From the NCBI GenBank assembly GCA_021803575.1, contig JAJZLH010000065.1, positions 2,571 to 66,570 of the forward strand: a stretch of 64,000 nucleotides of DNA, in the 5' to 3' direction. A program made the position numbers and the translations under genes. A model generated the notes under the pieces. It was given only the letters and a program-made list of their open reading frames with translations, made no database searches and was not told the DNA's origin. The DNA is from Bacillota bacterium (GTDB lineage: Bacteria > Bacillota > Sulfobacillia > JAJZYS01 > JAJZLH01). Positions 6,376 to 45,318 of this stretch are shown piece after piece; the first letter of the stretch is position 1, and every line of letters starts with the position of its first letter.

Positions 6376-6506
6376 CTTGTAGGTGCGGCGAACCTGGGAG
6401 GTGCGATCTGGTAAAAGTGCCAACAGGCCGTTTGACAAGATAGTGTGCACTTGGTAAGTACTGTAGCGAGATGACAAAGTCTAGACGATTGGAGTTGGGT
6501 ATGCCC

Positions 6507-6764
6507 ATGAAGGCAACCGGAATCGTGCGTCGGGTGGACGAGCTGGGGCGCGTGGTCCTGCCCGTTGAGCTGCGCCGCACCCTGGACATCAGCGACCGTG
6601 ACGCCTTGGAGATCTTCGTCGACGACGAACGGATCGTGCTCAGGAAGTATCAGCCAGACTGCATCTTCTGTGGCAGCATGGAGGACATCCAGCAGTACAA
6701 GGGCAAACCAATCTGCGCCAGCTGCCTGGGCGAGATGGGTGCCAAGGTTTCCGCCGCCAGCTAA
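6507..6764 (+). CDS. abrB: AbrB-family transition-state regulator with a Cys4 C-terminus
   Basis: MKATGIVRRVDELGRVVLPVELRRTLDISDRDALEIFVDDERIVLRKY is a near-identical AbrB swapped-hairpin N-domain. The C-terminus CIFCGSMEDIQQYKGKPICASC has CxxC-13-CxxC. Start taken at the internal ATG preceded by GGAG. Confidence 0.85.
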   Translation: MKATGIVRRVDELGRVVLPVELRRTLDISDRDALEIFVDDERIVLRKYQPDCIFCGSMEDIQQYKGKPICASCLGEMGAKVSAAS

Positions 6765-6790: not shown

Positions 6791-6814
6791 GAACCCGCCC
6801 TTCGGGGTGGGTTC
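6791..6814. terminator. hairpin between convergent abrB and the minus-strand island operon
   Basis: gaacccgccc-ttcg-gggtgggttc is a 10-bp stem followed by ttcccttgcctt. Confidence 0.45.
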
Positions 6815-6831: not shown

Positions 6832-7446
6832 TCACGGCGCGGCGTCCACCTGGCGGAGGCTGGGCATCACCTGCAGTGTGCCCTGGACCACCAGCGTGAA
6901 GAACTGTTCGCGCTGCCCATCCGTGACGCCGATCTGCCAGTTGCCATCAGCCGGCTGGGAAGAGGTCCAGGGCACGTACAGGACCCCCAGCTGATCGGCC
7001 CCGGTCACGGCCCAGGGCCGGGCGTTTAGAGAGGCGTAGTCGAGCACCTGGCCCTCGGCCGGCACCGAGATGCGAAACGCCGGCGGCAGGATGAAGGAGA
7101 GCGGCAGGCGGGCGCCCTGGACCAGCACCGACACCGCCTGGCCGCGCATGGCCTGGTGAGAGCCGGGTGCGATCGTCCAGTCGTCCTGAGGGCGAGGTCT
7201 GGCCACCACCGCCACCGCACGGCTGGCAAAGCCCCACTCACCCCGGTCGTCCTCCACCCACAGCGTCACGATATAGACTCCGGGGGAACCGAAGCTGCCG
7301 GCACGACCGAACCAGAGCTGGCGAATCAGGGCGTGCCCGGGGGCGGGATCGTATGAGCGGTCGATGTAGACGACGGGGCCTCCAACCAGCACCGGCGACG
7401 ACACATAGAAAGAAGCGACCGGCGGCGGGTAGTTAACCGGGCCCAT
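6832..7446 (-). CDS. hypothetical protein (205 aa), last gene of the Tad/T4SS-like operon
   Basis: Non-repetitive sequence MGPVNYPPPVASFYVSSPVLVGG...; ATG at 7444-7446 overlaps the stop of the upstream tadE-like gene. The 294-aa ORF in the track is this gene plus an out-of-frame read-through. Confidence 0.45.
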   Translation of the reverse strand: MGPVNYPPPVASFYVSSPVLVGGPVVYIDRSYDPAPGHALIRQLWFGRAGSFGSPGVYIVTLWVEDDRGEWGFASRAVAVVARPRPQDDWTIAPGSHQAMRGQAVSVLVQGARLPLSFILPPAFRISVPAEGQVLDYASLNARPWAVTGADQLGVLYVPWTSSQPADGNWQIGVTDGQREQFFTLVVQGTLQVMPSLRQVDAAP

Positions 7447-7891
7447 ACGCCACCTCCACATCGGCGGAGACCGCCTGCTGGAGGCCCATGCCGAGAAAGG
7501 AACTGGAAAAGGCCAGCTGACCGCCCAGGCCAGGCAGGGCGAAGTGGTAGCCGGTGACGGGATCGGTGGTGCCGGCGGCGTAGAGGGTGAGCGCGGGCGC
7601 TGCCGACTCGGCCAGGGCCGAGGGCAGATCAGCGGCCAGCACGGCGCGAAAGGTCTGCTTGGCCAGGGCCGGGTCGATCTGGGGGCCGAGCGGCCCGACG
7701 GGCAGGACCACCTCACTGCCGGCAGCGCGCAGGGCTGCAGAGAGAGCGGTGTAGGCCTGGAAGCGCGCCCACAGCGCCCGCTCCAGGGTGAGACCTGCTC
7801 CCAGTGCGAACATCAGGAGCAGCTCGACGAAGACGGCCAGAATGTAGATGACATGACCCTCGTCACGGCGTACCAGGTGCCACTTCCTCAC
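7433..7891 (-). CDS. TadE/TadG-like pseudopilin
   Basis: N-terminus EGHVIYILAVFVELLLMFALGAG is a TadE-like hydrophobic segment, then a soluble domain; 152 aa. Confidence 0.5.
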   Translation of the reverse strand: MRKWHLVRRDEGHVIYILAVFVELLLMFALGAGLTLERALWARFQAYTALSAALRAAGSEVVLPVGPLGPQIDPALAKQTFRAVLAADLPSALAESAAPALTLYAAGTTDPVTGYHFALPGLGGQLAFSSSFLGMGLQQAVSADVEVAYGPG

Positions 7892-8303
7892 TGTCCACTA
7901 CCTCCTGTTGGCCAAGGTGCAGGACCGTTCCGGCCAGGCCGAGCAAGGTGAAGGGGAAGCCCTGGAGGGGGATGCCAATAGCCACCGACACGGTCACGGG
8001 CTGGCCCCAGGGCACGACCGGCAGTGAGCCGGAAACCAGCGGCCGAGCAGAAATCCCGGCGTCGGCGAGGGCGCTCACCACAGCCTCAGACACCGCCGGC
8101 GTCACGCCGCCGTCCAGTGCCGCCGTCTCGGCGCCGACCTGAGCGGCGAAGGAGAGGTCGGTGGACCACTCGGCGACGCGCCAGGCGGCGAGGCCGCCGA
8201 ACAGGGTGAGCACCAGCAGTGGCAGCACCAGCGCCGTGGCGATGTAGACGTCGAGACTGCCCTCTTGCCGGGTGTGCCTACTGGCCGGTCGTGATCGGCA
8301 CAT
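7863..8303 (-). CDS. tadE: TadE-like pseudopilin
   Basis: RQEGSLDVYIATALVLPLLVLTLFGGLAAW closely matches the TadE N-terminal motif (a-LVLP-llll-fG); 146 aa. Confidence 0.6.
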   Translation of the reverse strand: MCRSRPASRHTRQEGSLDVYIATALVLPLLVLTLFGGLAAWRVAEWSTDLSFAAQVGAETAALDGGVTPAVSEAVVSALADAGISARPLVSGSLPVVPWGQPVTVSVAIGIPLQGFPFTLLGLAGTVLHLGQQEVVDSEEVAPGTP

Positions 8304-8496
8304 TCAGCCAGGCGGTGATGATGTCCCGGATGTGGGCGCCCACGGCGCTGAAGGCAAACAGAATGACCCCGGTCAGACTGACGGCAGCCAGGGCCATAAT
8401 GCCCTGTGCGATGTAGGTGGAGAGATCTCCGCGCTGGGAGCGGGCGAGGGTGGCGAGCGCCTGGCACCAGAGGCGGCCGTACGCAAACAGTGACAT
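8278..8496 (-). CDS. flp: Flp/Fap-type pilin candidate (73 aa), not present as a separate ORF in the track
   Basis: ATG at 8494-8496 overlaps the tadC stop (ATGA). Product MSLFAYGRLWCQALATLARSQRG|DLSTYIAQGIMALAAVSLTGVILFAF...: charged leader ending in G, then a ~25-aa hydrophobic helix with Tyr at +5 (class III signal-like). Confidence 0.5.
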   Translation of the reverse strand: MSLFAYGRLWCQALATLARSQRGDLSTYIAQGIMALAAVSLTGVILFAFSAVGAHIRDIITAWLNVPITTGQ

Positions 8497-9152
8497 CAGA
8501 GGATCCCCTTCCCGGGCAGAATGCCGAACTGGCGGATCAGAGCGACCAGGTGCGGGTAGCCGAACAAAATGGCGGCGTTGATCATGAACAGCCCGGCCAT
8601 CACGGTCAGGAGGTAGGGGACGAAGCCAGCCTGGCGGCGGATTCTGGAAAGGCGGGCCTGGCGCGAGATCGACTCCTGGGCTGCCATGGTCTGCCGGAGC
8701 GGGACGCCCAGCGTCTCTCCGGCACGTAGCGCCGAGATCAGGTTCTGGCCGGATGGGAAGGCGAGATCGCTGGACAGACGGGCCAGTGCGGCGGACAGAT
8801 CGGATGAGTGCAGCAGGTCGTCCCGGAACGACTTGAGCGGTGCAGCCAGGGGCCCCAGGGCGTCCGAGGGCAGGTGCAGCATGGTGGCCACGGCGCCCAG
8901 CCCGTTCTCCGCCGACATGCGCAGGAGCAGGAGGAGATCGGGGAACCAGGCCTCCATCCGCCCGAGCAGGCGCCGTCGGGCCAGGGCAGCGCTGAGCGGT
9001 GAGACACCGTAGGCAGCCAGAAGCGCCAGTGGTGTGAGGCTGGGGAAGAGCGGGGCAACCGCCATCAGGAGCCAGCCGCCCGGGTGGCGGGGCAGCCGCC
9101 TCCAGGCCAAGGCTGAGAGGGTCAGAGCGAGGGCGGCCAGATGACTCACCAT
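8496..9152 (-). CDS. tadC: TadC (type II secretion system F-domain platform protein)
   Basis: EAWFPDLLLLLRMSAENGLG...ISALRAGETLGVPLRQT...LLTVMAGLFMINAAILFGYP are T2SSF-domain signatures. Start placed at the ATG 9150-9152 with GGAG 7 nt upstream (overlaps the tadB stop); an alternative start is at 9227. Confidence 0.75.
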   Translation of the reverse strand: MVSHLAALALTLSALAWRRLPRHPGGWLLMAVAPLFPSLTPLALLAAYGVSPLSAALARRRLLGRMEAWFPDLLLLLRMSAENGLGAVATMLHLPSDALGPLAAPLKSFRDDLLHSSDLSAALARLSSDLAFPSGQNLISALRAGETLGVPLRQTMAAQESISRQARLSRIRRQAGFVPYLLTVMAGLFMINAAILFGYPHLVALIRQFGILPGKGIL

Positions 9153-9802
9153 AGGAGAGACTCCGGCTGGAAGTAGGGAGTACACAGCATGCTCGCCGTG
9201 GACAGAAGCACCCAACCGGAAAGCCACCGGCCGGCGCCTGACTGAAATAGGGAGCGTTCGGCCGGCGAGAGCAGGACGGCCGCCGCCAAGGCCAGCTCAA
9301 TCAGGAAGAAGAGGGCGGTGGCAGCTGTCAGTGCCGACTGCTCATTGCGCCACTGACCCGCCAGCTGGATGCGCTGCTCCACCTCCTGGAGGAGGATCAA
9401 TAGCGGGCGCTCCAGGCTGAGGCCGACCTGGACAGTGTCCTGGCCGAACAGTTGCCGGAGAGAGGTCTGGAGCCAGTGGGGCGCCCTGGGGTCGGACAGC
9501 AGAAACGAGGCCTCCGCGCCACCGGCGCCCAGCACCTCGTCGGGCTGGAGGGTGAGGGCGCTCATCTCGAACATCGCCTCCAGGCAGCGCTCGGTTGCAA
9601 CCAAGGTGCGACGGAGATCCCGGTTACGGCGCCAGCGGTCGAAGGCGGGCCAGGCGACGGCGCTCAGCGCCAGGGCCGGCACCAAGGTGACGGCGCCTCC
9701 CCACGTCCAGCCCAAGGCGGCGCCCAGCGGCAATAGAGCCAGCCGACGCTGGGTGATGGCCAGGGCGGAGGCGGAGAGAAGAGCGACCCACCAGATGGTC
9801 AC
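9146..9802 (-). CDS. tadB: TadB (T2SSF-domain platform protein)
   Basis: Three-TM T2SSF-like organisation (VTIWWVALLSASALA..., ...ALFFLIELALAAAVLL). GTG at 9800-9802 overlaps the cpaF stop (GTGA). The N-terminal 91 aa of the track ORF are an out-of-frame extension. Confidence 0.65.
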   Translation of the reverse strand: MTIWWVALLSASALAITQRRLALLPLGAALGWTWGGAVTLVPALALSAVAWPAFDRWRRNRDLRRTLVATERCLEAMFEMSALTLQPDEVLGAGGAEASFLLSDPRAPHWLQTSLRQLFGQDTVQVGLSLERPLLILLQEVEQRIQLAGQWRNEQSALTAATALFFLIELALAAAVLLSPAERSLFQSGAGRWLSGWVLLSTASMLCTPYFQPESLLW

Positions 9803-10806
9803 GGCCGGCCCTCCCCGGCCGCCCTCTGGCCATCGCTCCAGGCGAACTCGCCGCAGCGGTCCTCGATGGACAGGACCCGGACGCCCTCCTCGGTGCGGGA
9901 CATCAGTACCACCAGCCCGATCTCGGCGCGGAACGACTCCTCCAGGGCACTGGCGGAACTGGTGGGCAGTGCGGTCTGGGCCAGCCAGGCCAGGCGCTGG
10001 TGCACCCTGTCCGCACTGAGGGCGTGGATGGTGGCGAACGACCCGGCGTGTCCCGAGGAGAGGGCGAGCAACCACTCAAAGGCCTCCGCCCCGCGCAGCT
10101 CACCGATGCCCAGGCGATCGGGCCGCAGGTGCAGGGCGTGCCGAATGGCATCGCGGGCCGATACCGCGAAGCGGCCCTCGCGGTTGGCCGGTCTGGTCTC
10201 CAGTTCGATGACGTGCTGGTGGCATCCGACCAGGAACAGCTCGCGGACCTCTTCGACCACCACGATGCGATCGTCCGGAGGCATCTGGGACACCAGCCAG
10301 CGCAGGAGCGTCGTCTTACCGGACCCGGTCGGGCCGGCCACCAGGAATGAGCGGCGGCTATGGGCGATGGCACGCAGATGCCGCTCGGCCGTCGCATCGA
10401 ACATGCCGCGGCTGAGCAGGGCGTCCGTGGTCCACCGCTCGGGGCGGTGGATGCGGACCGAGATCGAGGGCTCCAGGGAATAGGGGGGAATGGTGAGGCC
10501 AATCCGGCAGTGGCCGAGCGTGATGGACTGGAAGGGCTGGGCCAGGGAGAGGTCGCGCCCTCCGGCTGTGGCCAGGTGAAGGGCCAGGTCGAGCGCAGCG
10601 ACCGGCGATGACAGCGTGCCAGCTGCCAGGAGGGCGTTGTCACGGCAAATCGTGATGGTGTTGCCACAGACGAAGACGTCGGAGACGGCGGGATCATCCA
10701 GAAACGGCCGCAGCGGGCCCCAGGGTGCGTCGTGCGGGCTCTCAGCGGAGGGGGCCGCCTCCCGGTTGAAGACGACTGAGCGGCTGGGGCTGCTGGCTGA
10801 TGCCAA
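9799..10806 (-). CDS. cpaF: CpaF/TadA pilus-assembly ATPase (VirB11/GspE superfamily), short form
   Basis: FLVAGPTGSGKTTLL Walker A; VVVEEVRE.. Walker B/Asp box; RPDRLGIGELRGAEAFEWL His box; 335 aa with no N-terminal accessory domain. Confidence 0.85.
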   Translation of the reverse strand: MASASSPSRSVVFNREAAPSAESPHDAPWGPLRPFLDDPAVSDVFVCGNTITICRDNALLAAGTLSSPVAALDLALHLATAGGRDLSLAQPFQSITLGHCRIGLTIPPYSLEPSISVRIHRPERWTTDALLSRGMFDATAERHLRAIAHSRRSFLVAGPTGSGKTTLLRWLVSQMPPDDRIVVVEEVRELFLVGCHQHVIELETRPANREGRFAVSARDAIRHALHLRPDRLGIGELRGAEAFEWLLALSSGHAGSFATIHALSADRVHQRLAWLAQTALPTSSASALEESFRAEIGLVVLMSRTEEGVRVLSIEDRCGEFAWSDGQRAAGEGRP

Positions 10807-11698
10807 TGGCGATCACCTCCTCGAGGCGCAGGTGGCGGAAGAGGTCACGGAACGGCGCCACGACCTGGGCCGGGAGGGGCCGGCCTGCAGCCAGGAGGTC
10901 GACTGGTGCCTGGCGCAGCCTGGGCAGGGCGAGTGCGGTTCCGGCCCCCAGCCGGCAACGACCCAGCACCTGGTTGAGGACGCACAGTCCCCCTGGGTCG
11001 GCGGGGGAGCGGGGCCGGCCGAGGGCCGGGGCGGAGAGGACGGTAACGGAGCGGCTTTGCGAAGGCTCCCACGGACCGTCGATCACACACACAGCCGGAT
11101 AGGGCGGCAGGGCCTCGCTGGAGCTGAGTAGCCTCGGCCCGCAGGCGGCTGACAGCTGGGGATGGTCGGTGAGGGACCGGGCGAGCAGGCCGTCGGCGGA
11201 CCGGTCCACCAGATAGGCCGCCATGCCCCGGGAGAGGCAGTAGAGAAACAGCCCCAGTGCCACCGTGCTCTGACCGATGCTGCCGGAGCGACGCTGGCAG
11301 GCGATCACGGTGACCGGCGGCAGGGCAGCGGCGATCAGCCGGAGCAGCGTCTCGCCGGTGAAGGCGCCGCTCAAGAGGTGCCTGACGCCAAGTTTGCGCA
11401 GGCCGATCACCGCCGCCGGGTCGCTGCGCGAGTCGGGCAGGATGTAGATGATCTGGCTGGGGGACATGTCGAGAGCCTGAACCAGTGCCAGGGGTCTCGC
11501 CGGCATGTCGGGCAGGGTGTGGCTGAGGATGAGCACATCCGGCCGGTGGGCGGCGACGGCATCAGCGACGAGGGCCGCAGACCGCACCTCGGCCACCACC
11601 TCCACCGCGCTCTGGGCATCGAGGAAGCGGCAGACGGCGTCCTGATCGAGGACACTGTGCGCCGCCACCAGCACTAAGGGACGCCCTACGAATGCCAC
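10742..11698 (-). CDS. cpaE: CpaE/TadZ-like (receiver-like N-domain plus ParA/MinD-like domain, atypical P-loop)
   Basis: N-terminal CheY-like fold (DAVAAHRPDVLILSHTLPDM) and C-terminal MinD-like region (VTVIACQRRSGSIGQSTVALGL) with a non-canonical Walker A; position between cpaB and cpaF. Confidence 0.55.
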   Translation of the reverse strand: MAFVGRPLVLVAAHSVLDQDAVCRFLDAQSAVEVVAEVRSAALVADAVAAHRPDVLILSHTLPDMPARPLALVQALDMSPSQIIYILPDSRSDPAAVIGLRKLGVRHLLSGAFTGETLLRLIAAALPPVTVIACQRRSGSIGQSTVALGLFLYCLSRGMAAYLVDRSADGLLARSLTDHPQLSAACGPRLLSSSEALPPYPAVCVIDGPWEPSQSRSVTVLSAPALGRPRSPADPGGLCVLNQVLGRCRLGAGTALALPRLRQAPVDLLAAGRPLPAQVVAPFRDLFRHLRLEEVIAIGISQQPQPLSRLQPGGGPLR

Positions 11699-12267
11699 GG
11701 CAGCACGACCACCTTTCCCCCCGCCAGGGCGTACTCCACCAATTCCGCCGCTCCCAGCGGCAGGCTGACTGAGACGAACGAGCCCTGGGCCGTGGTGAGA
11801 ACAGCAGCGACCGGTGCCCGTGCGACCAATACCTGGGGAGAGGGCGGGCCGGCCAAGAGCAGCATCACCGCCCCGTGTGCGCCGAGGCCGGGAGGGATGA
11901 TCGGCAGAGGGATCGTCACCAGCAGGGAGGACGGCGGCGGCTGGGGCTTCGGCATGTGCCTGGTCACGGCCCGGGGCGAGATCACCGTGCCCGGTGCAGC
12001 AGCTGCGATCAGGCGCCAGCCGACGGGCGGTGCGGGGAAGGTGCCGCCCGGCACGGCGGCCCCCGCCGCCAGCTCAAGCGGCAGGAGGTCCCGGGCTTCC
12101 AGGAGCGTCCCCGCCGGCAGCGGCCGGGCGGCCATCCAGACGGTGCGCCCGGACGGGGGGCCGGGCGGGAAGAGCGCCACCAGGAGAGCCGCCGCCGAGA
12201 GAATCACCGGCAGAAGGGACAAGGGCGGTCGCCAGGACCAGATCGAAGCCGGGCGAGCGGTGGTCAT
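11686..12267 (-). CDS. cpaB: CpaB/RcpC-like Flp-pilus assembly protein (TM plus SAF domain)
   Basis: ATG at 12265-12267 with GGGAGG 10 nt upstream. N-terminal TM LSLLPVILSAAALLVALF; SAF-like segment VWMAARPLPAGTLLEARDLLPLELAAGAAVPGG. Confidence 0.6.
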   Translation of the reverse strand: MTTARPASIWSWRPPLSLLPVILSAAALLVALFPPGPPSGRTVWMAARPLPAGTLLEARDLLPLELAAGAAVPGGTFPAPPVGWRLIAAAAPGTVISPRAVTRHMPKPQPPPSSLLVTIPLPIIPPGLGAHGAVMLLLAGPPSPQVLVARAPVAAVLTTAQGSFVSVSLPLGAAELVEYALAGGKVVVLPWHS

Positions 12268-12283
12268 TGGAGTGCGTACCTCC

Positions 12284-14161
12284 CTAACGCAGCGAGACAG
12301 GCGTGGTATTGGCGATCGATGACTCCAGGGCACTGAGGCTGATCGTGACCGGCCGCACGCCGCTGTCCACTAAGAGCGCCTCGCCCGGCTCGGCCAGGGA
12401 CAGCCACTGACTGGGGCGAGCCGACAGGCGGTAGCGCTGGCGGAGCATGCGGAGGTCATCAGGGCTCTGGCGGAACAGCACCAGCAGGCCGGCGTTGGCC
12501 AGCAGGAGGCCGCCGTCGTCGGAGAGCAGGAAGTCGCCGACGTTCTGGGTGACACCGGTGAAGCTGACGCCGACCTTTCTGGCCCGCTTCAACAGGGACA
12601 GGAGGCTGGATCGCACCTGGCCGTGGCGCAGGAAGAGATGCACCTCATCGAGCGTGACCGAGAGCGGATATCCCTGCTGGCGATGACTGCGCACCCAGTC
12701 TCCGACCAGTTCGATCAGGAGCGGAACGGCGGCCGAGACCGTTTCCGAGTCTGCCTGGCTCAGGTTGAAGGCGATCAGGCGGTGATCCGGAAAGCGGCGG
12801 AGGGGGGCCGAGAATCCCCTGAGCGGGCCATCCGCATAGGGCCACACCACCGGAAAGAGGGGATCGTCCGCGGGGATCCGCCCCAGCAGGTCGCGAAAGG
12901 TGGGTGCCGTGCTGTGCCGGTAGCACTCCGCCAGGAGGAGCCGGAGGCGGAGGACCTCGGCCGGGCCGAGGTTCCCTGCCAAAAGAGCCGGGATGCGCAA
13001 CAGCTTGCCCTCCACATCCCCTCGGCCGGGAGCGGCCAGGGGATTCAGCTGAGTGCCGCTGGCGCCGATCGGGATCGAGATTCCCTGCAGGTGGCGGACC
13101 AGCAGTTCGTACTCGCCTTCGGGATCAAAGACGATGGCTCTCGCATCGGACGCCTCGAGCCGTCGCAGGAGCTCGACCTTGCTAAACGTAGACTTGCCGC
13201 TTCCAGGAAGGCCCAGCACGAAGGCGGACGGATTGGTCTGCCAGCGCTGGTGCATGACCAGGCACTGGTGGTCCGAGTCAATGCCGAGGAATAGGTGTCG
13301 CTCCTGATCGGCCGCTGGGGCAGCCCACTCGTACAGGCCGAGGTGGGTGAGGGTCTGGGCGTCCAGCATGCGGAGCAGCGGCGGCTCAACCCCGAATCGC
13401 TCGCTGAACAGCCTGTGGACGCCGGCCTGCTGGAAGGGGATCGGTGCGAAGGCGAAGCCCAGGCTATGGGCAAGCTGACGAAACATGCGGAGCTCCCTAG
13501 ACGTGGGCAGACCTGGGAAAGCAGCCGCCACCGCCACCCGGAATAGACGATTGGTGCGCCCGACCAGCTGATCGAGCAGAGCCGCCGCGTCCTCAGCTGG
13601 GCGTTTATAGACGGGATCCCTGTGGACATGGGGGCCAAGCGCGCGCAGCCGGTGGCGGAGCAGCCGTGTGGCGTCGGTCACGGCCATGGGAGAGAAGTCG
13701 AACAGGAGGTCGAACCGGCCGGGGGCCGTGAACAGGGGGGCGAGCAGATCGATGGACAGTTGAGGTGGCCAGGAAGTGGCCACCAGGAAGGTGACATCAC
13801 CCTGGGAGCCGCTGATGTGGCGCAGGTGCTCTACAGCGACCGTTCCACCCGGCGCCCGAAGCAGTGGATCCGGCCGGCCAAACCGGAGGTGACGGGCCAA
13901 GGGAAGAGGCGTGAGGGCCCCCGGGGTGAGCAGGTGGAGGTCGGCGTGCCTGAGAGTGGCCGGCAGCTGGTGCCCCTCGTCGTAGAGATGGGCGAGGTGC
14001 GGCAGCTCGGATAGCTCTGTGTCACTGAGGGGCCGGGAGCGGAACCAGAACCTGAGATCGTGCGGGACGTGGAGGAGAAAGTTCAGGTCCTCTTCCTGGA
14101 AGGCAGACCGCTCATCGTCCCCAAGCCAGCGGAGGTGGACGGGGTGAACCAGCTGGCGCAT
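12284..14161 (-). CDS. VirB4/TrbE/CagE-family ATPase, short (625 aa)
   Basis: Walker A VLGLPGSGKSTF followed by AIVFDPEGEY; Walker B VTLDEVHLFL (DEAW-like); C-terminal KRARKVGVSFTGVTQN matches the VirB4 aRK..G....TQ motif; the N-terminal half resembles the VirB4 N-domain. Confidence 0.7.
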   Translation of the reverse strand: MRQLVHPVHLRWLGDDERSAFQEEDLNFLLHVPHDLRFWFRSRPLSDTELSELPHLAHLYDEGHQLPATLRHADLHLLTPGALTPLPLARHLRFGRPDPLLRAPGGTVAVEHLRHISGSQGDVTFLVATSWPPQLSIDLLAPLFTAPGRFDLLFDFSPMAVTDATRLLRHRLRALGPHVHRDPVYKRPAEDAAALLDQLVGRTNRLFRVAVAAAFPGLPTSRELRMFRQLAHSLGFAFAPIPFQQAGVHRLFSERFGVEPPLLRMLDAQTLTHLGLYEWAAPAADQERHLFLGIDSDHQCLVMHQRWQTNPSAFVLGLPGSGKSTFSKVELLRRLEASDARAIVFDPEGEYELLVRHLQGISIPIGASGTQLNPLAAPGRGDVEGKLLRIPALLAGNLGPAEVLRLRLLLAECYRHSTAPTFRDLLGRIPADDPLFPVVWPYADGPLRGFSAPLRRFPDHRLIAFNLSQADSETVSAAVPLLIELVGDWVRSHRQQGYPLSVTLDEVHLFLRHGQVRSSLLSLLKRARKVGVSFTGVTQNVGDFLLSDDGGLLLANAGLLVLFRQSPDDLRMLRQRYRLSARPSQWLSLAEPGEALLVDSGVRPVTISLSALESSIANTTPVSLR

Positions 14162-14165
14162 GCGC

Positions 14166-14480
14166 CTAGGTGCGTCGGACGAGGCGGGGTGCTACGGACC
14201 TGGCAGCCGGGCGGCGACGGAGCTGGCGGACGAGCCAGGGAGCGGCCCACATCAGCAGCGTGCGCAGGGCGAAGCCATCCACGGCGGCGAAACAGAGCAG
14301 TAGGAACGTCGCCCACAGAGCGGCGGCCAGTGCCATGGCAGCGGTGGAGCCAACGGTCAGTAGCTGGAAGGTGAGCATGGCCAGAGCAATGGCGCAGACG
14401 GCTGTCCATCCGTCCAGACCCCACAGCACAGGTTCACTCGACCGCAGCAGGTCCTGGGGGACCGGGTGGTGGGAGGGCAT
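14166..14480 (-). CDS. VirB3-like small two-TM membrane protein (104 aa)
   Basis: Directly upstream of, and 4 nt from, the VirB4-like gene, which is the canonical virB3-virB4 order. EPVLWGLDGWTAVCAIALAMLTF resembles the VirB3 P-x-x-x-G-L-T-R-P plus TM region; two hydrophobic helices. Confidence 0.4.
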   Translation of the reverse strand: MPSHHPVPQDLLRSSEPVLWGLDGWTAVCAIALAMLTFQLLTVGSTAAMALAAALWATFLLLCFAAVDGFALRTLLMWAAPWLVRQLRRRPAARSVAPRLVRRT

Positions 14481-14504
14481 AGGGGCGGCACCTCTGCTTT
14501 CGTC

Positions 14505-15257
14505 TCAAAAGTTCAGCCATTGAGCCGCCGCCGCCCACAGCGGATAGGATCGCCCGCTGCCGCTGATCAGGCGGCGGAAGAGGGCGGGAGCGCGAATCAT
14601 CAGGTAGAGGGCTGCCAGCCCGACCAGGGCGTTGGCAGGGCCTGGGCCTTCCAGTCCGGAGAGTCCCCTCGATAGCACCAGCACAAAGGCCTGCACCGTC
14701 TGAACCAATGTGACGACCACCAGTTCCTCGAAATAACGGGTGCCCACCCTGCGTGTCTCGGGCCAGGCGATCGCCATCATGCCCAGCGGCGAGATGGTGG
14801 CCAGAAACATGAGTTCGATGGCGCGGATCAGATAGACAACGGTGAGAGCGATGAGCAACAGCAGGTAGGGTAGCCACAGGACCAAGTCGGCCAGGATCTG
14901 TGTGGGCAGCGAAATGGGGCTCAGGTGGATGGCGACCCGGGCGGCGAGAGAGGCGATCAGGGCGTTGTTGAGATGAATCAGGAAGATGCAGATGCGCATG
15001 GAGAGAAGGGCCAGCACCGCCGTTAGAGCCAAAGACACCAGCAGCTTGAGCCAGTTGACGGGCGAACCGGTCATGGTGCGGGCCGCCGTGGCAAGGACCA
15101 GGATGACGGTGCACACCCCGACCAGCGACAGCGAGAAGTGCCATAGGGTGGACACGATCGGCAGCAGCCAGACGGCTGGGGTGATGGAGACCAGGGGAGC
15201 GAGGATGCCGAACACGCTCTGGAGAATGGGCTGGACCGCTGCTGCGATGAGGCTCAA
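14505..15257 (-). CDS. VirB6/TrbL-like polytopic membrane protein (250 aa, about 6 TM)
   Basis: Six predicted hydrophobic helices with no Asp/GGD prepilin-peptidase motifs; size and topology fit a VirB6/TrbL (or archaeal CedA-like) channel protein. Confidence 0.45.
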   Translation of the reverse strand: MSLIAAAVQPILQSVFGILAPLVSITPAVWLLPIVSTLWHFSLSLVGVCTVILVLATAARTMTGSPVNWLKLLVSLALTAVLALLSMRICIFLIHLNNALIASLAARVAIHLSPISLPTQILADLVLWLPYLLLLIALTVVYLIRAIELMFLATISPLGMMAIAWPETRRVGTRYFEELVVVTLVQTVQAFVLVLSRGLSGLEGPGPANALVGLAALYLMIRAPALFRRLISGSGRSYPLWAAAAQWLNF

Positions 15258-15493
15258 AAGGGTGCACCCTGTCCCGCCCAGGAGTAGACGAGGCGGACCA
15301 GGTCCTGGGCGAAGACCACCACCACCAGCCCGCCCACGACGGCCGCCAGATGGCGCCAGGCATGGCTGCGTTGAGCCGGGTTATCGCCGCTGGTCCACAG
15401 CAGGTAGCCTCCCCACAGCAAGAACAGCACGCTCGCTGTCCCCAGCCACGCCTGAACGGTGGAGATGACGTTGAGCAGGAAGTGCTGAACCAT
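15254..15493 (-). CDS. small two-helix membrane protein (79 aa), VirB2/TrbC-pilin-like candidate; first gene of the operon
   Basis: Two hydrophobic segments (TASVLFLLWGGYLLW and LAAVVGGLVVVVFA) separated by a polar loop; AAGGAG RBS 9 nt upstream; stop overlaps the next gene's start. Confidence 0.35.
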   Translation of the reverse strand: MVQHFLLNVISTVQAWLGTASVLFLLWGGYLLWTSGDNPAQRSHAWRHLAAVVGGLVVVVFAQDLVRLVYSWAGQGAPF

Positions 15494-15639
15494 GACGGTG
15501 GCTCCTTTGGCGGGTGCGGTGGACCGACGGCAGGGCCATCTGCAACATCCCTCGCCGCTGGTGCCAAGGGTGCAACGACAGGTGCCAACATCAAACCGCC
15601 CCTTCCCAGTGCTGTCTGTGCACGGGAAGGGTTCGCATG

Positions 15640-15720
15640 GGGCCAGGGCCTACCTCCCCATAAAAAAGTATAGTTTCCAGATACTGGTTATCCGTGGTGG
15701 GGGGACCGGAGTGGGCCGAT
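15640..15720 (-). promoter_or_regulatory. AT-rich patch upstream of the island operon (putative promoter region)
   Basis: ccccataaaaaagtatagtttccagatactggttatccg stands out in 70% GC DNA. On the minus strand it contains TATACT; no convincing -35 was found. Confidence 0.25.
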
Positions 15721-15728
15721 CCTCTCGC

Positions 15729-16043
15729 TCAGGCCAAAGCGGCGAGATGTGCCTCCAGCTCGGCCAGATCGAAGGCCTGCCCCGGGTTGGCCTGGGCCCG
15801 CAGGTAGCGGACCGCACCCGCCCGGTCGATCACAGCGGTGGCGCTCACCTGCAAGGTGCCGAGGAGCAGGCGGCGAAGTCCGAGGGCGTCGTAGATGTGC
15901 CTGCCCGGGTCCGCCAGGACGGGGAGCGTGAGAGCCAGCGCGACCTGAAGATGGCGGGCCGTCTTCTCGCCGGAGGGAACCACCACCACCAGCCCGACCT
16001 CTCTGTTTTGCCACCTCTCGCCATTGGCGGCCAACTGCCGCAC
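15729..16043 (-). CDS. thioredoxin-fold (AhpC/TSA/redoxin-like) C-terminal fragment, possible gene remnant
   Basis: REVGLVVVVPSGEKTARHLQ...LTLPVLADPGRHIYDALGL...TAVIDRAGAVRY matches the C-terminal two-thirds of redoxins. The N-terminal CxxC-bearing part is not in frame upstream. Confidence 0.35.
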   Translation of the reverse strand: MRQLAANGERWQNREVGLVVVVPSGEKTARHLQVALALTLPVLADPGRHIYDALGLRRLLLGTLQVSATAVIDRAGAVRYLRAQANPGQAFDLAELEAHLAALA

Positions 16044-16279
16044 ATGCCGCTGGCAGGCGATTCAGGTGGCCGCCCGCATCAGGTGGAACACGGTGAGGCG
16101 CCGCTCACGCAACAGGGCTCGCAGCGTCTGCTGCGCATAGTGGGCGTCGAGCACCGGGTCCGGAAGAATCTGACCGACGAGCGCCATACTGGTGGCCTCC
16201 TTCCGCTATCCTCCGGGGCGAGTCTGGGAGCCTGGGATTTAAGGAGTGAGCCAAGACGGACGGTGCCAAGATCGCCATC

Positions 16280-16663
16280 GTGTCCATCCCCGTGTCGGAC
16301 CAGAGCAGGGCCAAGGAATTCTACTGTCACGGATTAGGTTTCGTTCCACTGCTCGACACGGCCTTCGAGCAGGACGGCCGGACACAGCGCTGGGTGATGC
16401 TGGGGCTGCCAGACGGCGGGACGGCCGTCACCCTGGTCACCTGGTTCGAGACGATGCCGGCAGGCGCCCTGCGTGGCATGGTGGTGTCGGTGTCCGACAT
16501 CGAACAGGCGGCCAGAGAGCTGACGGACCGCGGTGTGGCGGGAGCCAACGCACCGATCCAGGAATCGCCCTGGGGTCGCTGGCTCACGGTCGAGGACCCG
16601 GACGGAAACGCCTGGGTGATCCAGCAGGACCGCCGGCCGGCCGCCCACACTGCCTCGCTTTGA
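16280..16663 (+). CDS. glyoxalase/bleomycin-resistance (VOC) family protein
   Basis: IPVSDQSRAKEFYCHGLGF...WVMLGLPDGGTAVTLV...WLTVEDPDGNAWVIQQ is a typical VOC beta-alpha-beta-beta-beta pair. Start may be a few codons upstream (GTG). Confidence 0.7.
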   Translation: MSIPVSDQSRAKEFYCHGLGFVPLLDTAFEQDGRTQRWVMLGLPDGGTAVTLVTWFETMPAGALRGMVVSVSDIEQAARELTDRGVAGANAPIQESPWGRWLTVEDPDGNAWVIQQDRRPAAHTASL

Positions 16664-16688
16664 CACTCGGACCGCCGCTCCCTATACT
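16660..16688 (+). promoter_or_regulatory. sigma-A-type promoter for the metG leader
   Basis: TTGACA (16660-16665), 17-nt spacer, TATACT (16683-16688). The -35 overlaps the glyoxalase stop codon. Confidence 0.55.
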
Positions 16689-16694
16689 TACCGC

Positions 16695-16940
16695 TACAAT
16701 CCGAATAGTGGCGATGACTGGGGAAGAGTATCGGCTGCGCAGGGTGCAGAGAGCCAGGTGGTGGTGAGAACCTGGTCCCGGCTGGCGAGAAGATGACCCT
16801 AGGAGCTGCCGTGAGGCCGGCTTGCCACCGATAGAGGGAGACGGGCCCGATGGCCCGCATAAGCCCGTCCCGGAGGGATGGGGGAAAGGGTGGTACCGCG
16901 ACTCACGTCGCCCCTGGCAGGGGCGGCGTTTTTGTTTCCT
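16695..16940 (+). promoter_or_regulatory. T-box riboswitch leader (Met specifier) with intrinsic terminator
   Basis: Stem-I AGAGAG motif (gcagagagcc); candidate specifier gagaagATGAcc; conserved T-box AAAGGGTGGTACCGCG at 16885-16900; terminator cgcccct-ggc-aggggcg followed by TTTTTGTTT at 16909-16937. Confidence 0.7.
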
Positions 16941-43810: not shown

Positions 43811-45318
43811 ACTTGCCATTGATTCGGCCGCCCGCCGTGGCGCTCAACCTGATCACGCCGGAACTGGCGCTGCTCGCCACCTCGATCCTGATCCTCTTGG
43901 TGGCTCTGTTTGACCGGCCGGGCCATGGCCACCTCCGGCTCAGCCTGATCGCCATGGCCGGCATCCTGGTGGCCGTGGTGCGCGACGGCATGCTCTTGGC
44001 AGGGGGAAGTCTGCCGGCCACCACCTTCGCTGGCACGTTGATCATGGATCCCCTGTCCGCGGTGCTGGACCTGGTCATCCTGCTTTCGGCCCTGGTGGCG
44101 GTGGTACTGGCCATGAACCGCCCGGAGGGGTCGCCTGACTACCTGGCCCTTTTGCTCTGGTCGGCCATCGGCATGATGGTGCTGGTCTCGGCCCATGACC
44201 TGATCGTGCTCTTTCTGGCGGTCGAGGTGCTGTCCTTGCCGCTCTACATCCTGTGCGCCTTCCGGCCGGACCGCCCGGCCTCCCTGGAGGCGGCGGTCAA
44301 GTACTTCCTGCTCGGCGCCTTCTCCTCCGGTTTTCTCCTCTACGGACTGGCCCTCTTGTTCGGCCTCTCCGGCGGCACCAACCTGAGCCAGGTGGCATCG
44401 GCCCTGGCCGGGGTAGGCTCGGCGCCCCTGTTCGCGCACTCGGCGGCCAGCGCCGGCGTGCTGGCCGAGGTGGCCGTGGGGCTGGTGGTGGTGGGCCTCG
44501 GCTTCAAACTGGGCGCCGTGCCGTTCCACCAGTGGGTGCCGGACGTGTACGAAGGGGCGCCCACCTCGGTCGTGACCTTCATGTCGGTGGGCACCAAGGT
44601 GGCGGCCTTCGGCGTGCTGGCCCGCCTGGTGGTGACCGTGCTTCAGGGCAGCGCCGTCGACTGGCAGAGCCTGCTCGGCGCCCTGGCGGTGGCGACCATC
44701 ATCGGCGGCGCCCTCCTGGCGCTGCCGCAGCGGAACTTCAAGCGCCTCTTGGGCTACTCCGGCATCCTGAACGCCGGCTATCTGGTGGCGGTGCTGGTGG
44801 TTGGCACCGCCGCCGCCCAGGCCGCCGGCGTCTACTTCCTCATCACCTACGCCCTGATGAATCTGGGCGCCTTCGCCGTCATCTCGGCGGTCTCAGCCGG
44901 TCATGAGGACGGCGTCATGCTGGAGCACTACCGGGGCCTCTTCTACCGGCAGCCCTGGATGGCGGTGGCGATGGCCGTGTTCTTGCTGTCCCTGGCGTCG
45001 ATCCCGCCGCTCAGCGGCTTCTTCGGCAAGCTGTTCCTCTTGGAGGCCCTGATCAGCGGCCACCAGCTGTTCCTGGCCCTCACCGTGGTGGCCGGCACCG
45101 CCGTCACCCTGATCGTGTACGGCCGTCCGCTGCTGGCCATGTTCATACCGGCCGACGCGCCCGCGGCGCCGTCCGCCCGTCCGGCGCCTGCGGTGGCGGT
45201 GGCGGTGGGCGTGCTGGCGGTGGCGGTGGTAGCGGTCGGGGTGGCACCGGGACTCCTGGTCCAGCTGGTGCACGGGGTGGCGCACAGCGGGCCCCTGGCC
45301 GGGATCAGCCGGCGCTAG
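43807..45318 (+). CDS. nuoN: NADH-quinone oxidoreductase subunit N
   Basis: Antiporter-like subunit; FLAVEVLSLPLYILCAF, GAVPFHQWVPDVYEGAPTSVV motifs. Confidence 0.9.
   Translation: MNLPLIRPPAVALNLITPELALLATSILILLVALFDRPGHGHLRLSLIAMAGILVAVVRDGMLLAGGSLPATTFAGTLIMDPLSAVLDLVILLSALVAVVLAMNRPEGSPDYLALLLWSAIGMMVLVSAHDLIVLFLAVEVLSLPLYILCAFRPDRPASLEAAVKYFLLGAFSSGFLLYGLALLFGLSGGTNLSQVASALAGVGSAPLFAHSAASAGVLAEVAVGLVVVGLGFKLGAVPFHQWVPDVYEGAPTSVVTFMSVGTKVAAFGVLARLVVTVLQGSAVDWQSLLGALAVATIIGGALLALPQRNFKRLLGYSGILNAGYLVAVLVVGTAAAQAAGVYFLITYALMNLGAFAVISAVSAGHEDGVMLEHYRGLFYRQPWMAVAMAVFLLSLASIPPLSGFFGKLFLLEALISGHQLFLALTVVAGTAVTLIVYGRPLLAMFIPADAPAAPSARPAPAVAVAVGVLAVAVVAVGVAPGLLVQLVHGVAHSGPLAGISRR

Follow-up and report, generated by a model that had tools for sequence, protein, structure and literature searches.

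A minus-strand operon of 13 genes on a contig of a Sulfobacillia-lineage Bacillota bacterium (JAJZLH010000065.1, assembly GCA_021803575.1) joins the core of a type IV secretion system (T4SS) to a Tad-type pilus. The stretch of this contig that was analysed, called the window below, is 64,000 nt long. The operon is rare, restricted to one clade and apparently undescribed, and it combines a known monoderm T4SS core with a known monoderm Tad pilus. Judged from comparison of its homologues it is an old, vertically inherited, functional locus of one Sulfobacillus-like (Bacillota) clade and is under purifying selection. It is proposed, with a probability of roughly 45%, that the operon would encode a domesticated machine for cell contact and DNA transfer, working in the manner of the Ups and Ced systems without being a member of that family.

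Organisation of the operon

The block at 6832-15493 had been picked out from the DNA and its open reading frames (ORFs) alone, and all 13 minus-strand ORFs listed in that sequence-only reading are present there (Table 1). Gene starts were refined by comparison of orthologues and by ribosome-binding sites. With these starts the last gene, given before as 205 aa, encodes 204 aa from an ATG at 7446 that has GGAGG upstream, and the CpaB gene, previously taken to overlap the VirB4 gene, has its most likely start at 12267, which gives 193 aa and leaves 16 nt between the two genes. The tight spacing that had been described is borne out, with overlaps of 1-65 nt or gaps of at most 24 nt throughout: from g01 through g04 to g05 a 4-nt overlap is followed by gaps of 24, 4 and 16 nt, and from g05 to g13 successive genes overlap by 13, 65, 4, 7, 1, 26, 29 and 14 nt. 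A consensus scan of the block found no internal sigma-70-like promoter, and terminator-like sites inside it are in no excess over chance. By the coupling of its genes the whole span of ~8.7 kb is best read as one co-transcribed unit. Where g13 and the abrB-type gene converge, a GC-rich hairpin lies between their ends and is a probable terminator; it was read from the sequence and had been missed by a simple terminator scan, as it has no T-run.

Table 1. Genes and other features of the operon and its surroundings (window coordinates)
Feature	Position	Strand	Description
g01	15254..15493	-	VirB2/TrbC-like T4SS pilin, 79 aa
g02	14505..15257	-	VirB6/TrbL-like polytopic membrane protein, 250 aa, TTG start
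g03	14166..14480	-	Small protein with two transmembrane segments in the VirB3/PrgI position, 104 aa
g04	12284..14161	-	VirB4-family ATPase, 625 aa, short N-terminus
g05	11686..12267	-	CpaB/RcpC-like single-pass protein, 193 aa
g06	10742..11698	-	TadZ/CpaE-like protein, 318 aa; pseudo-receiver and degenerate MinD/ParA P-loop
g07	9799..10806	-	CpaF/TadA secretion ATPase, 335 aa
g08	9146..9802	-	TadB-like membrane protein, 218 aa; GTGA overlap with g07
g09	8496..9152	-	TadC, T2SSF-domain platform protein (borderline), 218 aa
g10	8278..8496	-	Flp-like prepilin, 72 aa
g11	7863..8303	-	TadE-like pseudopilin, 146 aa
g12	7433..7891	-	Second pseudopilin-like protein, 152 aa
g13	6832..7446	-	Tandem Ig/PKD-like beta-sandwich protein, 204 aa
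Sigma-H-type promoter-like element	15631..15657	-	GGAGGTAGG-N11-TGCGAAC, 164 nt upstream of the first start codon
Leader hairpin	15600..15631	-	CCCTTCCC-N16-GGGAAGGG, in the ~160-nt leader; read from sequence
GC-rich hairpin	6791..6814		GAACCCGCCC-TTCG-GGGTGGGTTC, between the convergent g13 and abrB ends; probable terminator
AbrB-type gene	6471-6764	+	MazE_antitoxin/SpoVT-AbrB fold, 3e-10
AhpC/TSA-like gene	15729-16187	-	In-frame TGA at 16062-16064
Glyoxalase gene	16280-16663	+	Between the operon and metG
Sigma-70 promoter	16660-16688	+	Near-consensus TTGACA-17-TATACT, upstream of metG
metG T-box leader	16705-16918	+	RF00230, 65.7 bits (E 9e-13) against a gathering score of 93

The secretion system half

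The membership of the pilin, VirB6, VirB4 and CpaF products in their families is shown by profile searches. The first protein, g01, matches the Pfam families T4SS_pilin (PF18895; 6.4e-8, 33 bits against a gathering threshold (GA) of 26.6) and TrbC (PF04956; 2.5e-7, 31.2 bits against 27.9). The second, g02, has five hydrophobic segments and matches Pfam TrbL_4 (1.3e-9, 38.3 bits against a GA of 27); hhalign aligns it over 193 columns with the TrbL of a locus that resembles an integrative and conjugative element (ICE), L006, at a probability of 80% and an E-value of 1.4e-5, and a search of the Protein Data Bank (PDB) with the VirB6-like family profile gave no match.

The ATPase g04 scores best with the NCBIfam model of CD1110-type VirB4 proteins (9.1e-40, 137 bits), followed in the same collection by VirB4_plasma (2.7e-20), TraC (2e-8) and VirB4_CagE (3.4e-7), with far weaker matches to CedB (0.0018) and HerA (5.7e-3). 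Its family profile finds the C-terminal domain of VirB4 (4AG5, 7.6e-20) ahead of HerA (2.6e-5) in the PDB, and its Walker A motif GLPGSGKST and Walker B residues D505-E506 are invariant among the aligned homologues. Family models and PDB profiles both favour VirB4, so the assignment made from sequence alone stands and g04 is not a HerA- or FtsK-only ATPase. Since its scores lie below the NCBIfam equivalog cut-offs, it is regarded as a divergent member of the family. Its nearest relatives among VirB4 proteins are the CD1110-type conjugation ATPases, that is, motors of DNA-transfer machines, and the characterised relatives of its clade are all named as conjugal DNA-transfer ATPases. An AlphaFold2 model of the VirB4 protein, built from an alignment of eight sequences, had a predicted local distance difference test (pLDDT) value of 55 and was left aside, its quality being insufficient for a fold search.

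Between the VirB6-like and VirB4 genes lies g03, in the place that PrgI occupies in L004, L006 and L008. It has two transmembrane (TM) segments and gave no PrgI or VirB3 match in the Pfam hidden Markov model (HMM) search; the matches that it did give are low, to the N-terminus of the SCO6880 family (2.2e-5) and, by hhalign, to the PrgI of L006 (probability 9.9%). Its position, size and topology weakly suggest a VirB3-like protein.

The Tad half

The motor of the second half is g07, and its naming as CpaF/TadA in the sequence-only reading is confirmed by Pfam T2SSE (1.5e-32), by NCBIfam TIGR03819, the conjugal transfer-associated TadA family (1.2e-64, below the equivalog cut-off), and by its nearest relatives outside the operon family, which are CpaF/TadA proteins of 34-41% identity. 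It was also considered as a VirB11 protein (2.8e-39); because TIGR03819 outscores VirB11, and because T2SSF and prepilin-like genes are adjacent, it is treated as TadA, and it may have a dual TadA/VirB11 role.

The two candidate platform proteins are less clear. No Pfam or NCBIfam model matches g08, which is placed as TadB-like by position, size and TM pattern and aligns weakly with the TadC family (hhalign probability 10.6%, E 0.003). For g09 the Pfam T2SSF match (2e-5) reaches 25.0 bits against a GA of 25.2, i.e. 0.2 bits under it, and the same domain is found in four of seven g09 orthologues; its membership of the TadC family is therefore borderline. Upstream of the motor, g05 has one N-terminal TM segment and matches to the SAF domain (0.0026) and to TIGR03177 pilus_cpaB (0.022 in the window, 6.4e-4 in the L001 orthologue), all below the curated cut-offs. 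The TadZ/CpaE-like g06 shows weak receiver-domain matches, and its orthologue in L001 matches the N-terminal receiver of CheB (3.6e-7) and the P-loop region of BcsQ (0.0044). In the aligned sequences the acceptor aspartate of g06 is replaced by Ser or Asn, and the Walker A motif reads SG(G/S)xGQ(S/T)T, without the lysine.

Three small proteins with prepilin-like N-termini follow. In all lineages g10 has a short charged leader, an invariant (R/K)G, the motif DLS(T/A)Y(I/L)AQG and a hydrophobic helix, and it has one TM segment; neither Flp_Fap nor any other HMM matches it. Pfam TadE matches g11 under its GA (0.0046), and the conserved N-terminus of this protein reads G/SLD(V/I/T)(Y/F)(I/V)A..(L/M)(V/I/A)LP(L/V)(L/I). 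A conserved Gly before an N-terminal hydrophobic helix also marks g12, which has one TM segment and no HMM match. The parts list and order drawn up from sequence alone are thus upheld by HMM for the pilin, VirB6, VirB4, CpaF and, at the borderline, TadC, and the products called VirB3-like, TadB, flp-like, TadE/G-like and CpaE are left without a significant family HMM match. Motifs, topology, position and low-scoring matches lend weak support to the assignments of the VirB3-like protein, TadB, CpaB, TadZ and g10-g12.

The last protein, g13, has homologues in the present operon family only. Its family profile matches the PKD domains of collagenases (E 0.0027), and its AlphaFold2 model (pLDDT 86.1) consists of two beta-sandwich domains of Ig/PKD type, for which the top Foldseek matches in the PDB are cadherins, the S-layer protein SbsC, RbmA and the SraP adhesin. 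At two loci (L022 16125-16766 and L044 12880-13524) the g12 frame runs on for ~60 codons beyond the usual stop and overlaps g13, giving a product of 214 aa against ~152 aa. Since g13 itself carries no export signal, a g12-g13 fusion or frameshift product might be a pilin-anchored Ig/PKD adhesin in the L022/L044 lineage.

The TadC/Flp junction is the one place in the operon where insertions are tolerated. In L003 (15683-16398) it contains two extra ORFs on opposite strands (107 aa and 162 aa), neither with a Pfam match, and in L023 (4842-5463) ~620 nt of non-coding DNA. This tolerance suggests a possible second promoter before the pilin genes.

Conservation and descent

Searches seeded with the VirB4, CpaF and g13 proteins of the present family recovered ten further loci (L001, L002, L003, L009, L010, L020/L021, L022, L023 and L044), which with the window represent seven lineages. 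All ten have these 13 genes in an unchanged order, an arrangement that is for this reason far beyond chance, and with these seeds no locus with half of the operon was recovered. The chromosomal site is also constant: at every locus the operon is flanked by abrB and, opposite it, by metG-tatD-rpfB-like-ksgA. The family is small: only eight close homologues of g04 occur among 5.8 billion clustered proteins, and in a HMMER search of 1.84 billion representatives three clusters at 870-1050 bits are followed at 260 bits by ordinary CD1110-type VirB4 proteins. One of the VirB4 members bears the NCBI name 'VirB4 family type IV secretion system protein [Sulfobacillus sp.]'.

Pairwise identities of the operon proteins and of MetG rise and fall together (Pearson r 0.98 over 21 locus pairs), and the ratio of non-synonymous to synonymous substitution (Nei-Gojobori dN/dS) is 0-0.35 for all 13 genes in unsaturated comparisons. 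The lowest values (0-0.075) are those of g01, which is the most conserved gene of the operon with 77-96% identity across lineages; between the two main groups the VirB2-like protein is ~80% identical, against 69% for MetG. The G+C content of the operon equals that of its flanks, with no anomaly of composition, and a search for att-like direct or inverted repeats in the flanks returned imperfect matches at chance level. By tblastn against PLSDB the TrbL-like and TadZ-like proteins have no match and VirB4 finds only conjugation ATPases of ~26% identity, and a scan of the viral contigs of IMG/VR gave nothing. The gene calls of the window (~18-60 kb) show housekeeping genes, namely purR, glmU, prs, pth, mfd and the nuo operon.

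The sequence-only reading had taken the block for an accessory insertion, i.e. a recent acquisition. This does not agree with a single site in seven lineages, G+C like that of the flanks, the lack of att repeats and co-divergence with metG. With a fixed site, this co-divergence, no att repeats or integrase nearby and constraint on all genes, the operon is not a recent insertion, and by these comparisons it is conserved over divergence at the level of genus to family.

The region upstream of the operon

[quoted passage not shown] In the ICE-like loci L006 and L007 an SSB gene directly follows VirB4, and its product is 28% identical to the operon SSB. The lineages that lack the SSB gene have an untranslated operon leader of 160-290 nt.

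The region upstream of the first gene contains a sequence that resembles a sigma-H promoter. The consensus RMAGGRWWW-N11-12-RRMGAAW is known from Listeria, where sigma-H promoters drive comG, comE and coiA (comGA, comEA, coiA) (PMC4754846). Each of the eight loci examined has the pattern AGG-N17-[AC]GAA precisely once within the 300 nt upstream, where 0.035 is expected. The copy in L022, GAAGGATTA-N11-GTCGAAT, has a perfect -35 element and a -10 element identical to that of a Listeria sigma-H promoter. From this promoter-like match, the operon may be controlled by sigma-H. A conserved upstream CTGGAA motif was also considered, by eye, as a sigma-54 or an extracytoplasmic function (ECF) promoter; these readings were dropped, as the spacing of the sigma-H type fits all eight loci.

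Right after the promoter-like -10 element lies the leader hairpin, and a comparable stem is found in the three closest relatives of the window, L002, L009 and L010. A search of the leader against Rfam gave no family. The hairpin could be an attenuator or a processing site.

Components that are missing

The search for missing components covered the Pfam-annotated gene calls of the window (~18-60 kb) and the 10-kb flanks of L001, L002, L003, L020 and L044. The sequence-only reading had noted that no relaxase, VirD4-type coupling protein, hydrolase, VirB8, integrase or prepilin peptidase is near, and none was found in either of these sets. In particular, a relaxase and a type IV coupling protein (T4CP; VirD4/TcpA/FtsK-like) are absent from both, a hydrolase of the VirB1, PrgK or NlpC/P60 type and a VirB8/TcpC-like scaffold were found neither among the operon proteins by HMM nor in the flanks, and Peptidase_A24 (TadV/CpaA) was found neither in the operon nor in the gene calls or homologous flanks. 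A prepilin peptidase may be encoded elsewhere in the genome.

Proposed function

In the proposed model two cooperating envelope machines would be made from one operon once a sigma-H-type promoter switches it on. The distal nine genes would give a minimal monoderm Tad-type pilus, with a CpaF motor, a TadB/TadC platform, a degenerate TadZ, a CpaB-like anchor, a Flp-like major pilin with two minor pilins, all processed by a prepilin peptidase whose gene is unlinked, and an adhesin-type protein that is Ig/PKD-like. The proximal four genes would encode the irreducible core of a monoderm conjugation channel, in which a VirB2-like subunit and a VirB6-like pore go with a VirB3-like partner and with VirB4 as the motor. 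Contact with a partner cell would be made and tightened, or DNA captured, by the pilus, perhaps together with the Ig/PKD protein. The VirB4/VirB3/VirB6/VirB2 module would then move DNA, probably single-stranded, across membrane and wall with neither relaxase nor coupling protein, and the SSB, where the operon encodes one, would coat the transported DNA. That the two halves co-operate, that their substrate is DNA, which way it is transported and that sigma-H controls the operon are what we infer from the genes. A fuller version of this model is put forward more tentatively, with odds well short of even: that this Bacillota clade has domesticated a conjugation core fused to a Tad pilus, under sigma-H control, for relaxase-independent exchange or import of chromosomal DNA, as an independent reinvention of the Ups and Ced arrangement that is distinct from both ComG/ComEC competence and classical conjugation.

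Several observations weigh against the proposal of a contact and DNA-transfer machine. DNA as the substrate is suggested by the ancestry of the VirB4 core and by an SSB gene in three of seven lineages; the window and three other lineages lack this gene, and their long leaders hold no remnant of it (noise only). The coupling of the two halves is in turn suggested by co-inheritance and overlapping genes. A VirB1-type hydrolase and a VirB8-like scaffold would be expected for a thick-walled monoderm, and the gene calls show neither within 10 kb. On the pilus side, TadB, Flp, both pseudopilins and TadZ have no significant HMM support, g10 lacks the canonical Glu5 and has Tyr there (G/DLSTY against G/xxxxEY in Flp), and g13 has no signal peptide or TM segment and hence no export signal. 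Finally, the promoter region (15494-15730) contains no LexA/Cheo box (GAAC-N4-GTTC, at most one mismatch), and therefore induction by DNA damage like that of Ced and Ups is not indicated.

In one alternative the operon would make two co-expressed surface filaments, a Tad pilus and a VirB2-type pilus built by VirB4, VirB3 and VirB6, that serve adhesion, aggregation or biofilm formation only and translocate nothing. Tad pili are classically adhesive, the last gene of the operon encodes a tandem Ig/PKD protein of adhesin type, neither a relaxase nor a coupling protein was found that could recruit a substrate, and the SSB is missing from four of seven lineages, the window included. The VirB2-like protein is however the slowest-evolving product of the operon, with an identity between groups above that of MetG, which is atypical of an exposed adhesive filament; the SSB heads the operon in three lineages, and the conjugal DNA-transfer names of all characterised relatives of the VirB4 clade likewise speak for transport. 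Filaments that only adhere are considered unlikely, if by no means far-fetched. A rather improbable reading is that the operon, as a conjugation module, still belongs to a system that is mobile or mobilising. It would then be an old element that integrated, or a module for mating-pair formation that sits on the chromosome and is served in trans by a relaxase, an origin of transfer (oriT) and a coupling protein. The outcome would be Hfr-like transfer, or transfer of an ICE or plasmid, with the Tad pilus as a stabiliser of mating pairs, as the thin pilus is for R64. The core of pilin, VirB6, VirB3 and VirB4, sometimes with SSB, is indeed the same as in ICE-like loci that have an integrase, FtsK or a relaxase. 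Sulfobacillus elements (pL15/pY0017 and Kr1) combine CpaF/TadB/TadC with VirB4, TraG and a relaxase (PMC6803676), as C. acnes plasmids do in like fashion (PMC5696575), and the view taken here spans 64 kb of the genome, so that factors acting in trans may lie outside it. A mobile system is hard to reconcile, however, with an identical chromosomal site in seven lineages and the co-divergence with metG (r 0.98), with the lack of att repeats and of an integrase, with G+C equal to that of the flanks, with the isolation of the family among 1.84 billion representatives (three clusters at 870-1050 bits, then 260 bits), or with the plasmid and viral searches, in which the TrbL-like and TadZ-like proteins have no homologue in PLSDB, VirB4 has only ~26%-identical ones and viral contigs gave nothing.

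There is also precedent for a Tad pilus joined to a basal body that belongs to another secretion system: the Kil Tad pilus of Myxococcus works with a needleless type III secretion system (PMC12075869). By analogy with Kil and with bacteria-killing T4SSs, the Tad pilus could engage a neighbouring cell and the T4SS-like core could inject an effector, and g13, adhesin-like and with no signal peptide, could itself be the substrate. Contact-dependent delivery of protein or killing is nevertheless very improbable here, given that no locus has a toxin/immunity pair or a recognisable effector in or next to the operon, that the known effector-translocating T4SSs need a coupling protein and none is present, and that the linkage to SSB points to DNA.

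If the operon is indeed a domesticated contact and DNA-transfer machine, it would be a second bacterial case of a domesticated conjugation apparatus; as of 2023, hyperthermophilic archaea were stated to be the only organisms known to have domesticated such an apparatus for the cellular exchange of DNA (PMC9905601). With contact pilus, channel, motor and sometimes SSB all in ~8.7 kb, it would offer a compact, clonable test bed for asking how a VirB4/VirB3/VirB6/VirB2 core can move DNA with neither coupling protein nor relaxase, how a type IV filament and a T4SS channel cooperate, and how the machinery of mobile elements becomes that of the host. Should it make adhesive filaments only, it would still be of use as an instance of a minimal VirB2 pilus system from a Gram-positive cell.

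Neighbouring genes

The sequence-only reading had placed the block between abrB and metG. The site is right, and the operon is not its sole content: the AhpC/TSA-like gene, the glyoxalase gene and the T-box leader of metG are also found there (Table 1). When its in-frame TGA is read through, the AhpC/TSA-like gene encodes a U-I-A-C (UxxC) redox motif and matches the AhpC-TSA model over positions 1-123 of 124 (E 1.1e-11). Both the TGA and a downstream CTGCC-N12-GGCAG hairpin are kept in L002 and L009. The gene is a candidate for a selenoprotein gene with a selenocysteine insertion sequence (SECIS) element, or for a conserved pseudogene.

On the other side, the AbrB-type gene is convergent with the operon and ends 67 nt from the operon end, an adjacency that is kept in all lineages. 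Residues 61-89 of its product show a weak double zinc-ribbon match (DZR_2, E 0.011, below cut-off). AbrB is a repressor of transition-state genes in Bacillus, and a regulatory link from the AbrB-type protein to the operon is conceivable.

Two further genes of the window are unrelated to the operon. A GAF-HD-GAF-GGDEF protein of 889 aa is encoded on the minus strand downstream of nuo (window ~45300-48000; L046 7096-9765), and further downstream follows an SLH-domain protein (L046 14816-16807, ~53.0-55.0 kb of the window).

Comparison with known systems

The sequence-only reading knew of no described system with a VirB4 ATPase and Tad genes in the same operon. The impression that Tad and VirB4 together are new is too broad, since both occur on one plasmid in Sulfobacillus and C. 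acnes, yet the relaxase-free chromosomal form in one operon was not described in the literature searched. pL15/pY0017 of Sulfobacillus thermotolerans and the Kr1 integrated element encode MinD-like, CpaF/TadA and TadB/TadC proteins with VirB4, TraG and a relaxase (PMC6803676), and linear plasmids of Cutibacterium acnes carry Tad genes and a VirB4-type conjugation system on one replicon (PMC5696575). Unlike the operon these elements are mobile and possess a relaxase, TraG/FtsK-type translocases and a transglycosylase or TcpC. No homology to the operon could be shown in PLSDB, where the TrbL-like and TadZ-like proteins have no match and no Sulfobacillus record is among the 25 VirB4 matches listed or the 10 genera named for them (12 further genera are unnamed). 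PMC5696575 also cites Tad-dependent transformation in Micrococcus, which, like Ced with Ups and the relaxase-less T4SS of Patescibacteria, counts as a precedent for the proposed machine. A 2025 review of T4SS nomenclature leaves Tad unmentioned, and the literature searched gave no description of a relaxase-free chromosomal Tad-VirB4 fusion operon.

Each half taken alone has close parallels in monoderm bacteria. The order pilin (PF18895), TrbL/VirB6, PrgI/VirB3 and VirB4, sometimes followed by SSB, is shared with T4SSs of the MPF_FATA (mating-pair formation) type: L004 has Maff2-TrbL_2-PrgI-VirB4 with a T4CP and a relaxase, L006/L007 have T4SS_pilin-TrbL-PrgI-VirB4-SSB-FtsK with an integrase, and L008 has pilin-X-PrgI-VirB4-TrwB-like-relaxase. 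The present operon differs in having no T4CP, relaxase, NlpC/P60 or VirB1 hydrolase, VirB8/TcpC-like protein or integrase, in its VirB4, which at 625 aa is shorter at the N-terminus than the ~720-800 aa of the MPF_FATA type, and in being vertically inherited, whereas those loci are mobile. The distal genes resemble minimal monoderm or actinobacterial Tad loci, in which a short CpaF of the TIGR03819 type is followed by one or more T2SSF-type platform proteins, a tiny Flp-like prepilin and TadE-like proteins, with no secretin. The nearest outside CpaF that was examined (38% identity) belongs to a locus of this kind, L043, which has the same layout and no VirB4. In contrast to such loci, the operon has a CpaF at most 41% identical to outsiders, Tyr in place of Glu5, a TadZ that lacks the Walker lysines, and an attached VirB4 module.

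Chromosomal systems that derive from T4SSs, have no cognate relaxase and do not serve self-transfer are also known from H. pylori, where ComB takes up DNA, and from Patescibacteria (PMC12102498, PMC12857230). ComB likewise lacks VirD4, but it is a diderm system with VirB7-10. Patescibacteria share with the operon the combination of VirB2-like pilins with type IV pili (PMC12102498, PMC12857230), whereas their loci retain VirB1-, VirB8- and VirD4-like genes (PMC12857230). Neither system is described as fused to a Tad operon (PMC12102498, PMC12857230).

The closest likeness in composition is to the archaeal Ced system of the Sulfolobales, which imports DNA together with Ups type IV pili, and to the related Ted system. 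Ced consists of the VirB2-like CedA1, the VirB6-like CedA, CedA2 with two TM segments and the short VirB4-like ATPase CedB, and it depends on a type IV pilus for cell contact (PMC9905601, PMC11868833). The operon shares with these systems a chromosomal VirB2-like pilin, a VirB6-like pore, a small protein with two TM segments and a short VirB4-like ATPase, the lack of both relaxase and coupling protein, and a partner filament of the Tad/archaeal type IV branch (PMC9905601, PMC11868833). Ted loci often contain a MinD/ParA-type gene, and the operon contains a TadZ-like gene. Ced and Ups are described as separate systems (PMC9905601, PMC11868833), whereas here pilus and translocon are encoded in one operon. 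Ups and Ced have a UV-inducible archaeal promoter and the operon a sigma-H-like one, and the function proposed for the operon is a prediction from its genes. In sequence the operon does not belong to the Ced family: the CedB model gives g04 17 bits against a cut-off of 700, compared with 137 bits for the CD1110-type VirB4 model, and g01 and g02 match the bacterial T4SS_pilin, TrbC and TrbL_4 models, so that the likeness to Ced is one of composition and architecture only. From these matches of VirB4, pilin and TrbL to bacterial types it follows that the operon would have arisen independently of Ced, from monoderm bacterial conjugation.

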